Positions 24,909 through 26,606 of a stretch of 64,000 bases of DNA are shown one piece after another; the first letter of the stretch is position 1, and the number at the start of each line of letters is the position of its first letter. The stretch is from Balamuthia mandrillaris. Its lineage: Eukaryota. Below the pieces are notes generated by a model. That model was not told the DNA's origin. It saw only the letters and a program-made list of their open reading frames with translations, and did not search any database. The DNA lies in contig JAVKOQ020000064.1 in assembly GCA_031835245.2 (NCBI GenBank), positions 1-64,000 of the forward strand, written 5' to 3'. The translations under genes were made by a program, and so were the position numbers.

Positions 24909-26606
24909 TTACGTACATACGAGCTCAGTGATCCGTCCACAATGGTCCCTTCGGGTAACGCTGGACTGAATGGCTCCCTCCTCTGTTCGCCTAGTGATGA
25001 GCTGATCCTTCTCTCTATCGATCCTCTCCAAGGCGGACATATCCACCTCTTCCCCTGCTATCTTCACGGCAGCCTCTTTGACTTGCGCCCAAGCAATCAT
25101 CTGAAAGTTGTCTTTATCAGCATACTCCAGGCTCATCCGGTCGACGTTGTCGCAGGTAACGGTCAGGACAGGTGTGTTGAGTACCAGTTTGATGTTCTGG
25201 CTGTTGATTACTTCCAACATGTTGGTCAGCACTTTTCCGTCGACGATGATGGTAGTGTCTTGACAGTTCTCCAACACGATCTTCTTGGTCTTGCTTAACA
25301 CGCGATAGACGCTGCCTTTGCAGCGATGGAAGAAAGCCAATTGGAGAGAGGGAAAGGTCAGGTCTCGCTCCTCGTTGGTGCCGGAGATGACCTTTCGTTG
25401 GTAGGGATTCTCACCTCGGGTGAGAGCGTTGCCTCGAGAGGCAGGGTTCTCTCTCTTTTCTCTTTCGATCTCTGCCATCTTCTTACGACACTCTTCTCTC
25501 TTCTCTTCGTGCTTGCGATCGATGTCTTCCTCGTATTCGGGTATCTTAAGCCCCTCAGGAGTCGTGAAGGGGATCTCCACTCCCAACTCCTTCATGACCA
25601 GATGCCACACATCATCCAAGTGCCCACGGATCAGGAACTCCGCCTGCTGGTCGTAGGGCGTGCGTTGCAGGTTGCAAATGATCATCTTGCCGCCGTTGCG
25701 AAGGACTTGCAGGGGCAAGGAACAGGCCGGCTCTACCATCATGGTAGAACCCAACACGATGGCCAGGTCCCCCTTGCGACTTTCCTTGTCGGCCAAGGCC
25801 AGCTGATCCTCCGGCAGAGTCTCTCCAAATGCCACGATGGTGTCCAGCAGCAAGCCATCGCACCCTTCCTCCTCACAAAGAGCTCCACACCAGTGCCTGT
25901 CCACTGCCCTGTGCTCTGTCGTCTGTCGCTGTAGCACGTCCTGAGGTCTGAGATAAGCCTTGCCGCACTTGTTACAAGTCTCCAGGTAGCTGTTACCGTG
26001 CAGCTCCGCCAGGTTGACCGACCGCTGTAGGCCGGAGCGCATGTGCAGCCCGTCGACGTTGGTGCTCACCACAAAGTGAAGCTTCTTGCGACGGACCAGC
26101 TCGGCCACCGCCATGTGCGACAAGGTCGGCAGGGCCTGGGAGATGGTGGCCAGGTAGCTGCCTTGAAGCGCCGTGCCTTGGTCCCTGTTGGTCCACATGC
26201 CGTCGGATCCTCGGTAGTCGGGGAGTTTGGCGGCGGTGGAGATGCCTGCGCCGGTGTAGACCACCACGCGTTTGGCCTTTTTGATGAGCTGGGCCAAGCG
26301 TTCACATTTCTTACGGAAGGCTTGGGGCTCGTCGAACCACTCGATCTTGTCTTCCTCCTGCTCGTGACCGAAATGCCAGCGGAAGGAGGAACGTTCGCTT
26401 GGTTCGGCCTCGTCTTGGGCGTCAAGAACGGCGGTGGGGGTGGTCTTGACCACCGTTTCCACGTCGGCTAGTTTCCTTTTGTTGAAATTGCGAATGCCTG
26501 CAAGCAAGGCTTCCATCTTATTTTGTTTGTTGGTTTGGTTCGATTTGAAACCACAGCAAACAACAAGAACCCCCCAGAGGAAAATAAATACGTCCCGCTC
26601 TCCCAT
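24909..26606 (-). CDS. WH2-like + class IV sirtuin (SIRT6/7-like) + C-CAP/CARP domain fusion protein
   Basis: ALLAGIRNFNKRKLADVET; VVYTGAGISTAAKLPDYRGSDGMWT, STNVDGLH, LAELHGN, Zn Cys pairs CNKC and CEEEGC, CNLQRTPYD; C-terminal beta-helix repeats FHRCKGS/LENCQDT/VINSQNI/CDNVDRM. Start is 26516, or 26606 with a 75-nt intron at 26591-26517. Confidence 0.85.
   Translation of the reverse strand: MGERDVFIFLWGVLVVCCGFKSNQTNKQNKMEALLAGIRNFNKRKLADVETVVKTTPTAVLDAQDEAEPSERSSFRWHFGHEQEEDKIEWFDEPQAFRKKCERLAQLIKKAKRVVVYTGAGISTAAKLPDYRGSDGMWTNRDQGTALQGSYLATISQALPTLSHMAVAELVRRKKLHFVVSTNVDGLHMRSGLQRSVNLAELHGNSYLETCNKCGKAYLRPQDVLQRQTTEHRAVDRHWCGALCEEEGCDGLLLDTIVAFGETLPEDQLALADKESRKGDLAIVLGSTMMVEPACSLPLQVLRNGGKMIICNLQRTPYDQQAEFLIRGHLDDVWHLVMKELGVEIPFTTPEGLKIPEYEEDIDRKHEEKREECRKKMAEIEREKRENPASRGNALTRGENPYQRKVISGTNEERDLTFPSLQLAFFHRCKGSVYRVLSKTKKIVLENCQDTTIIVDGKVLTNMLEVINSQNIKLVLNTPVLTVTCDNVDRMSLEYADKDNFQMIAWAQVKEAAVKIAGEEVDMSALERIDREKDQLITRRTEEGAIQSSVTRRDHCGRITELVCT

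Follow-up and report, generated by a model that had tools for sequence, protein, structure and literature searches.

The minus strand of the window, by which we mean the whole 64,000-nucleotide stretch of Balamuthia mandrillaris DNA analysed here, carries a reading frame that raises the question of whether a sirtuin sharing its polypeptide with two modules of actin-binding type works on actin, is controlled by it, or acts independently of it. A preliminary description made from the sequence alone had read the locus as a sirtuin placed within the scaffold of cyclase-associated protein (CAP/Srv2), between a WH2-like motif and a C-terminal CARP domain, and had proposed an actin deacylase or ADP-ribosyltransferase of apparently undescribed architecture.

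Gene limits and transcripts

The minus-strand frame 24909-26606 is open, contains all the sequence stretches quoted in the preliminary description, and encodes the three parts named there, with SIR2 and CAP_C matches above their Pfam cut-offs. The limits given for the gene needed correction, as the protein starts at 26516 and not at 26606 and extends about 25 residues beyond the end that had been indicated. As judged from a database protein and from relatives, the coding sequence of 535 residues plus stop occupies 24909..26516 (minus strand) without visible internal intron. The Met at 26516, the second in the frame, is the most likely start, being the first residue of the database protein and of two full-length relatives. 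The 30 extra codons upstream (26517..26606, minus strand) include 75 intron-like bases with GT..AG ends (26517-26591), and sequences from other strains lack 4 bases at 26522 and 1 base at 26602 (4/4 reads); because these deletions would shift a coding extension, and given the GT..AG ends, the upstream codons are probably a 5' leader. The stop at 24909 looks genuine, since close relatives terminate at the same position, and an extra 3' exon beyond a GT near the stop was rejected for the same reason. Within the frame, 28 of the 38 strain differences listed are synonymous. A cluster mate of the window's protein (P0006, NCBI KAL6048156.1), assigned by NCBI to Balamuthia mandrillaris, differs from it at 15 of 535 residues; its annotation as ditrans,polycis-polyprenyl diphosphate synthase is a mislabel.

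Three runs presumed to be RNA yielded contigs that together cover 24933-26397, and no joint is listed for them within the frame; a neighbouring gene is spliced in two of these runs. No single contig among them spans both the sirtuin core and the CARP domain, and the raw RNA reads (13 and 3 on 24300-27000, and 4 on 24800-27100) are too few to establish level, strand or 5' splicing. On the other hand, complete transcript ORFs of Pyxidicula operculata and Flabellula baltica hold all three parts in the same order, so that the fusion is not an assembly artefact and the single transcript foreseen in the preliminary description is borne out in relatives.

Around the locus, a plus-strand gene lies head to head with the frame (window 26792-27100, spliced from 26938 to 27011), and the downstream gene at 21859-24440 (minus strand) is HEAT/CLASP-like, a label obtained from reading its sequence. 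Long simple-repeat tracts are found at 13390-15933, 16530-16960, 43500-44500 and 52300-53500 of the window, and two near-duplicate starts on the minus strand, at about 13.8 and 15.8 kb, are F-box-like.

The sirtuin core

Pfam, solved structures and alignment locate a sirtuin core at residues 58-316 (25569..26345, minus strand), with the NAD loop at 89-94, Thr152, the catalytic His173 and zinc cysteines at 181, 184, 214 and 219. The SIR2 profile exceeds its cut-off (E 2.7e-23), and comparison with solved sirtuins gave E values of 2.6e-59 for SIRT6, 4.8e-50 for SIRT7, 2.9e-21 for SIRT5 and about 1e-12 for SIRT1/3. Judged by these sequence comparisons, the core is of class IV, as had been proposed, and nearer to SIRT6/7 than to classes I-III. 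The full-length structure model (pLDDT 81) matches SIRT6 structures, and a fold search with it returned only sirtuins.

The conserved Gln that precedes the Asn of the NAD-binding loop is replaced here by Thr152. The same Thr is present in 146 of 182 near-complete cores, a set obtained from 342 proteins after removal of 4 duplicates and of cores shorter than 215 residues, and 139 of these 146 Thr-type cores keep the catalytic His. As mutation of the equivalent Gln in SIRT2 reduces activity, according to the portion of PMC3603925 cited here, the chemistry of the Thr-type enzymes may differ. A further departure concerns the basic arginine-anchor loop by which SIRT6 docks on nucleosomes, as described in the part of PMC10104460 dealing with that contact. 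At this position the Balamuthia protein has a short acidic segment, and the mean charge at the site is -1 in 11 proteins of the same domain order versus +1.7 in 11 animal SIRT6.

The core is flanked by an acidic spacer at residues 26-57 (26346..26441, minus strand), predicted to be disordered (pLDDT below 50 over residues 17-50, net charge -6 over 31-57), and by a linker (25413..25568, minus strand) in which the structure model places a long charged helix (residues 332-356).

A thymosin/WH2-like motif before the core

Residues 3-25 (26442..26510, minus strand) form a beta-thymosin/WH2-like motif, a likeness based on Pfam matches, mostly below cut-off, and on family profiles built in this analysis. 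The Balamuthia motif retains the anchors Leu5, Ile8, Phe11, Leu16 and Thr21, and consists of an amphipathic helix with a correctly spaced, Leu-led core after it. In a set of 43 seed members of the family, Thr is universal, while 42 have the Phe, 41 the Leu and 35 the Lys. Of the LKKV/T-like motif in the preliminary description, the Leu-led core and its spacing stand, but the basic core residues do not: the family's Lys17, present in 24 of the 43 members, is Ala, position 18 is Asp, and Thr19 is Val. The Pfam gathering score is likewise not attained, as the Thymosin profile matches the Balamuthia protein only below threshold (E 0.075, 13.3 bits, cut-off 24.8). The basic residues of the LKKT/V core are credited with a salt bridge in actin sequestration (in the section of PMC8880164 on this contact), and with these residues lost, actin binding by the Balamuthia motif may be weak or non-sequestering.

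In 42 family members, hand-picked mostly for carrying the motif, the Pfam Thymosin and WH2 profiles gave matches at E<1 at the motif site in 8, one of them above cut-off, and no match in 34. A profile from 47 seeds detected 66 motif sites in the 342 proteins, and none of 1026 shuffled sequences reached 10 bits. When the profile was built from 10 CARP-first relatives only, the Balamuthia protein scored 26.3 bits, against 4.8 for the best of 1900 shuffles, which agrees with the N-terminal motif proposed at the outset being conserved. By these profile comparisons the motif is beyond chance at the family level. The motif is not invariable among Thr-type cores: where at least 40 residues lie upstream of the core (116 cases), 54 have it and 62 lack it. 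In all 59 cases in which a motif match was found within 80 residues before the core, the sample taken for spacing, the distance to the sirtuin was 17-38 residues.

In the full-length model, made without a partner, the motif has a pLDDT of about 51, with a helix at residues 2-6 at low confidence. Searches of the N-terminal 39 residues against solved structures (no match at E at most 10) and of residues 1-60 against the Atlas (no usable match) returned nothing, a result that does not show absence. The motif was also seen at the C-terminus of two sirtuin-YEATS proteins, P0332 of Lapot gusevi (529-551) and P0092 of Leptophrys vorax (539-551), where it hints at a link with nuclear actin.

A CARP-like beta-helix outside the CAP subfamily

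The C-terminal domain, residues 369-535 (24912..25412, minus strand), was assigned to the CARP-like beta-helices by Pfam (CAP_C, E 2e-9, 37.7 bits, cut-off 23.8), fold search and alignment. As the fold search with the full-length model had given sirtuins only, the domain was refolded alone, yielding a beta-helix with a pLDDT of 95, in agreement with the fold first proposed for it. Its top Foldseek matches are the CARP domains of CAP (E 8e-5). VIA-align ranks three CAP structures first, with Z scores of 16.0-16.6 and a best rmsd of 2.2 over 126 residues, ahead of TBCC (Z 11.6) and RP2 (Z 10.3).

In sequence, the domain's nearest relatives within the best 150 of the 158 representatives are for the most part stand-alone CARP-like proteins, themselves uncharacterised, and not canonical CAPs, and on this evidence the domain belongs to an uncharacterised sister subfamily distinct from that of CAP. 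Its C-terminal hairpin is extended and replaces the short tail of CAP, and Gln505, Arg523 and Gly527 are nearly invariant. Over 166 domains of the subfamily, Lys412 is conserved in 160, Asp456 in 156 and Arg523 in 156; Lys412 and Asp456 align to CAP positions yet differ from the CAP residues, and Arg523 does not align. The experimentally tested actin-contact residues of CAP1, taken from Table 1 of PMC5951797, are partly kept: K365 is retained, D372 and Y351 are replaced conservatively by Glu and Phe, and K347, Y353, N367 and Q399 are altered, so that 3 of the 7 mapped contacts are kept or conservative. The D446/F447/E449 secondary interface of CAP1 and the tail allow no alignment, and the register at Y418 is uncertain.

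A complex of two CARP copies with an animal-type stand-in actin (L015) was modelled with a score of 0.52 against 0.02 for the best control, in a range (at most 0.60) that holds only 5 of 78 solved pairs but all 4 passing mismatches of 180. The score mark itself is passed by 51 of the 78 solved pairs and 2 of 108 mismatched pairs. The runs had at least 42% of contacts in common and a partner pLDDT of at least 83. As a like complex has been solved (6FM2), the pass may reflect the model's memory. The modelling lends weak support to actin binding by the CARP domain.

Giant-virus actins were set aside as modelling partners for being too divergent. The actin motif had 33 matches in prokaryotic assemblies (L014-L046), mostly on short contigs resembling eukaryotic contamination. 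Two more divergent actins (89% and 85% to L015, respectively), L028 on a Microcoleus chromosome of 6.3 Mb and L035 on an Oscillatoria contig of 23.5 kb, are possibly real transfers, a phenomenon of which Microcystis is a known case.

The stand-alone CARP-like proteins (P0133-P0269) constitute a large uncharacterised family in their own right, contributing 110 of the 166 aligned domains. They have an invariant Lys/Glu/Thr/Asp set and the extended hairpin tail, and Atlas clusters point to their presence in Mucoromycota, Apicomplexa and Oomycota. Several end in a Cys-rich motif that we take to be SEC-C-like.

Architectures, range and tree of the family

Among the 182 near-complete cores, with counts blurred by fragments, the Balamuthia order of motif, sirtuin and CARP was found in 11, sirtuin-CARP in 9, CARP-motif-sirtuin in 20, CARP-sirtuin in 16 (some with a more distant beta-helix), motif-sirtuin in 26, and neither motif nor CARP in 100. 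Named members come from Amoebozoa, Heterolobosea, Rhizaria and sponges; all named carriers are amoeboid cells or sponges, in a search that started from an amoeba. CARP-first forms occur in Naegleria fowleri, N. lovaniensis, Willaertia, Pelomyxa and Stenamoeba, and motif-sirtuin forms in Luapelamoeba, Pellita, Mastigella and the foraminifer Nonionella. Balamuthia itself has three family types, namely the window's protein and two paralogs known from protein matches only, P0028, in which CARP lies upstream of the sirtuin, and P0301.

An IQ-TREE tree was built from 79 cores picked by hand among the 182, without an outgroup beyond class IV. A branch (99/93) separates all 56 Thr-type rows from the animal SIRT6, the fish SIRT7 and four proteins of sponge type; the cores of these four form a branch of their own (100/98). 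A weakly supported split (94/55) puts the amoebal and sponge-type cores together, opposite SIRT6/7, and an exclusive clade of the two gave a p-AU of 0.038, for a hypothesis named after the tree had been seen. In the best tree of 44 rows, the backbone of which is largely unresolved, the CARP domain changes side at least 4 times. The motif and the sirtuin behave as a stable unit, an observation that speaks against insertion of a sirtuin into CAP. The CAP-like scaffold suggested initially is not supported, as the motif travels with the sirtuin, CARP can lie on either side, and its subfamily is not that of CAP.

Additional modules were seen on related proteins. Many related class IV sirtuins carry zf-UBP (PF02148), a module also found in HDAC6, some of them together with an N-terminal CARP-like helix (P0059, P0303), and two related sirtuins have Kelch repeats (P0281, P0285).

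A putative actin-tethered deacylase and its alternatives

We propose that this fusion of a class IV sirtuin with a thymosin/WH2-like motif and a CARP-like beta-helix is a putative G-actin-tethered, NAD+-dependent lysine deacylase, an explanation that we regard as having about an even chance of being correct. Its candidate targets would be acyl marks on actin or on an actin-bound partner. The motif would fold onto the barbed-end cleft of G-actin, like WH2 and thymosin. Because motifs of this type run towards the pointed end of actin, the spacer of 17-38 residues would bring the catalytic domain near subdomain 2, the site of Lys50 and Lys61. The CARP-like domain, probably as a dimer, would provide a second grip and may favour ADP-actin. 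The outcome would be a tie between the NAD+ level of the cell and the acylation of the actin monomer pool, a job similar to that of HDAC6 on CAP and acetyl-actin.

What the proposal builds on as observed is a set of three domains in a defined order, an intact zinc site and catalytic His, and a motif that is linked to the sirtuin across the family. That two different modules of actin type recur on one enzyme, with the CARP side mobile, would favour an involvement of actin, as would the replaced nucleosome-docking loop and the amoeboid or sponge nature of the named carriers; the degenerate motif core, the Thr-type cores that lack the motif, the partial CAP interface, the exchanged Gln and a fold that RP2 and TBCC use with other partners would speak against it. 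The fixed short spacing and the conservation of the motif would equally suit an allosteric tether, and actin could be the regulator and not the substrate: G-actin bound at the motif or at CARP would gate activity or location, and the sirtuin would sense the monomer pool, in the manner of RPEL-type proteins, which are G-actin sensors, while acting on other proteins. The motif at the C-terminus of the two rhizarian sirtuin-YEATS proteins, an architecture that is nuclear in Acanthamoeba, is in line with such sensing. A second module of actin type would, however, suggest holding of a substrate over sensing, and we consider actin as mere regulator rather unlikely. Our confidence is lower still that the motif is vestigial in the Balamuthia copy and that the partner of CARP is not actin but a small GTPase, tubulin machinery or a dimer partner, leaving a cytoplasmic deacylase unrelated to actin. 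The decayed motif core, the partly lost CAP interface, the subfamily's own invariant Lys412, Asp456 and Arg523, and the shared fold of RP2 and TBCC would all fit this improbable case, against which stand the hydrophobic anchors and final Thr that are kept, the 26 bits on the held-out profile and a CARP-actin model weakly above its controls, possibly through memory of 6FM2.

The enzyme could finally be an ordinary SIRT6/7-type chromatin sirtuin with passive appendages, or an ADP-ribosyltransferase, which we hold to be very unlikely. Its closest solved relatives are indeed SIRT6 and SIRT7, and the Gln-to-Thr change could alter the reaction. Nevertheless, the arginine-anchor loop is lacking, the core belongs to the branch of 56 rows (99/93) that the tree sets apart from animal SIRT6 and fish SIRT7, and the catalytic His is kept, unlike in the dedicated ADP-ribosylating sirtuins of class M, which lack it. 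The ADP-ribosylation put forward in the preliminary description has no support of its own. By analogy, a nuclear role may be suggested by the only characterised amoebal class IV sirtuin found in the literature, AcSir2 of Acanthamoeba, which is mainly nuclear according to the localisation given in PMC7376869, and which also counts against the actin reading.

Extending the proposal of a G-actin-tethered deacylase, we can tentatively imagine, with more doubt than confidence, an old class of actin-dedicated sirtuins in Amoebozoa, Heterolobosea, Rhizaria and early animals, with a tether and a mobile CARP grip, that would have G-actin as substrate and link NAD+ to actin turnover; the animal SIR8 proteins would then be a surviving branch or a parallel re-fusion. 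For the role of an NAD+-linked actin eraser in crawling cells, a sirtuin with built-in tethers of actin type would be a direct candidate. The exchange of Gln for Thr across the family and the still uncharacterised subfamily of CARP domains pose biochemical questions in their own right.

Comparison with known systems

The Balamuthia protein is neither a CAP nor a SIRT6 orthologue; should the proposed steps hold, it would operate like CAP and a deacetylase combined in a single polypeptide. With human SIRT6 and SIRT7 it shares about 41% identity over the core, the NAD loop, the His and the zinc site, and it differs from them in having Thr for Gln, extra modules, no nucleosome-anchoring loop and a separate branch in the tree. 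From class M (SirTM) it is set apart by His173. With CAP/Srv2, its best match in CARP sequence and fold, it has in common a WH2-type motif and a CARP beta-helix on one chain. However, the oligomerisation and helical domains at the N-terminus of CAP are not found among its Pfam matches, its motif lies about 340 residues from CARP whereas WH2 adjoins CARP in CAP, and its CARP domain has 19% identity to that of CAP, with an interface partly retained and a different tail.

HDAC6 is a zinc-dependent enzyme unrelated to sirtuins, and its action on CAP-bound acetyl-actin, which takes place in trans, is a functional analogy only. The sections cited from the review PMC7555357 present it as the presumed eraser for actin lysines held by CAP, describe actin acetylation as controlling INF2 in mammals, and list Lys50 and Lys61 of actin as acetylated in mammals; those sections yielded no instance of lysine-acylated actin in amoebae.

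Other amoebae have likewise expanded class IV sirtuins with added modules, as exemplified by AcSir2 and Sir6a-f of Acanthamoeba (PMC7376869, PMC7468528). Unlike the Balamuthia protein, AcSir2 has a YEATS domain and keeps the Gln, in addition to its mainly nuclear location (PMC7376869). The amoebal and protozoan class IV sirtuins treated in the portions cited of PMC7376869, PMC7468528 and PMC3484402 are described without motif or CARP modules, and for Sir6a-f these portions contain no domain analysis.

The closest precedent is SIR8, a group of class IV sirtuins of sponges and cnidarians described by Gold and Sinclair in 2022, about half of which have CAP-C (PF08603) upstream and whose function is given as unclear in the section devoted to them (PMC9486876). 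The joining of a class IV sirtuin to CAP-C, common to SIR8 and the Balamuthia protein, is therefore already published, contrary to the first impression that this architecture had not been described. In SIR8, CAP-C is upstream in 6 of the 6 proteins listed, and in the Balamuthia protein it is downstream. A literature search, mostly outside subscription journals, returned only PMC9486876 on the fusion and nothing on a WH2-bearing sirtuin, on the amoebal range or on this order, and in the SIR8 section of that paper neither amoebae nor a WH2 or thymosin motif is mentioned.

Proteins of SIR8 type in our set are P0316 (Ephydatia), P0333 and P0351 (Corticium), P0286 and P0288, the label being deduced from an upstream CAP-C and from a nine-residue insertion taken to be the SIR8 motif. 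In four sponge-type proteins the CARP domain is of the same subfamily, its full-length isoforms scoring 62-110 bits on amoebal profiles, and the core is preceded by a short, weaker match to the motif (9.1-18.5 bits, against no more than 5.1 for shuffles). The nine-residue insertion is present in these cores, and so is the Gln, in contrast to the Balamuthia protein with its Thr and no insertion. With Gln-bearing cores that fall outside the amoebal group, the sponge-type proteins may owe their add-ons either to shared ancestry followed by divergence or to transfer between paralogs. SIR8, so far without a proposed function, would thereby gain a testable one, with the overlooked motif as a second pointer to actin. 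What is new beyond SIR8 is the thymosin-like motif, the amoebal range and the order motif-sirtuin-CARP.
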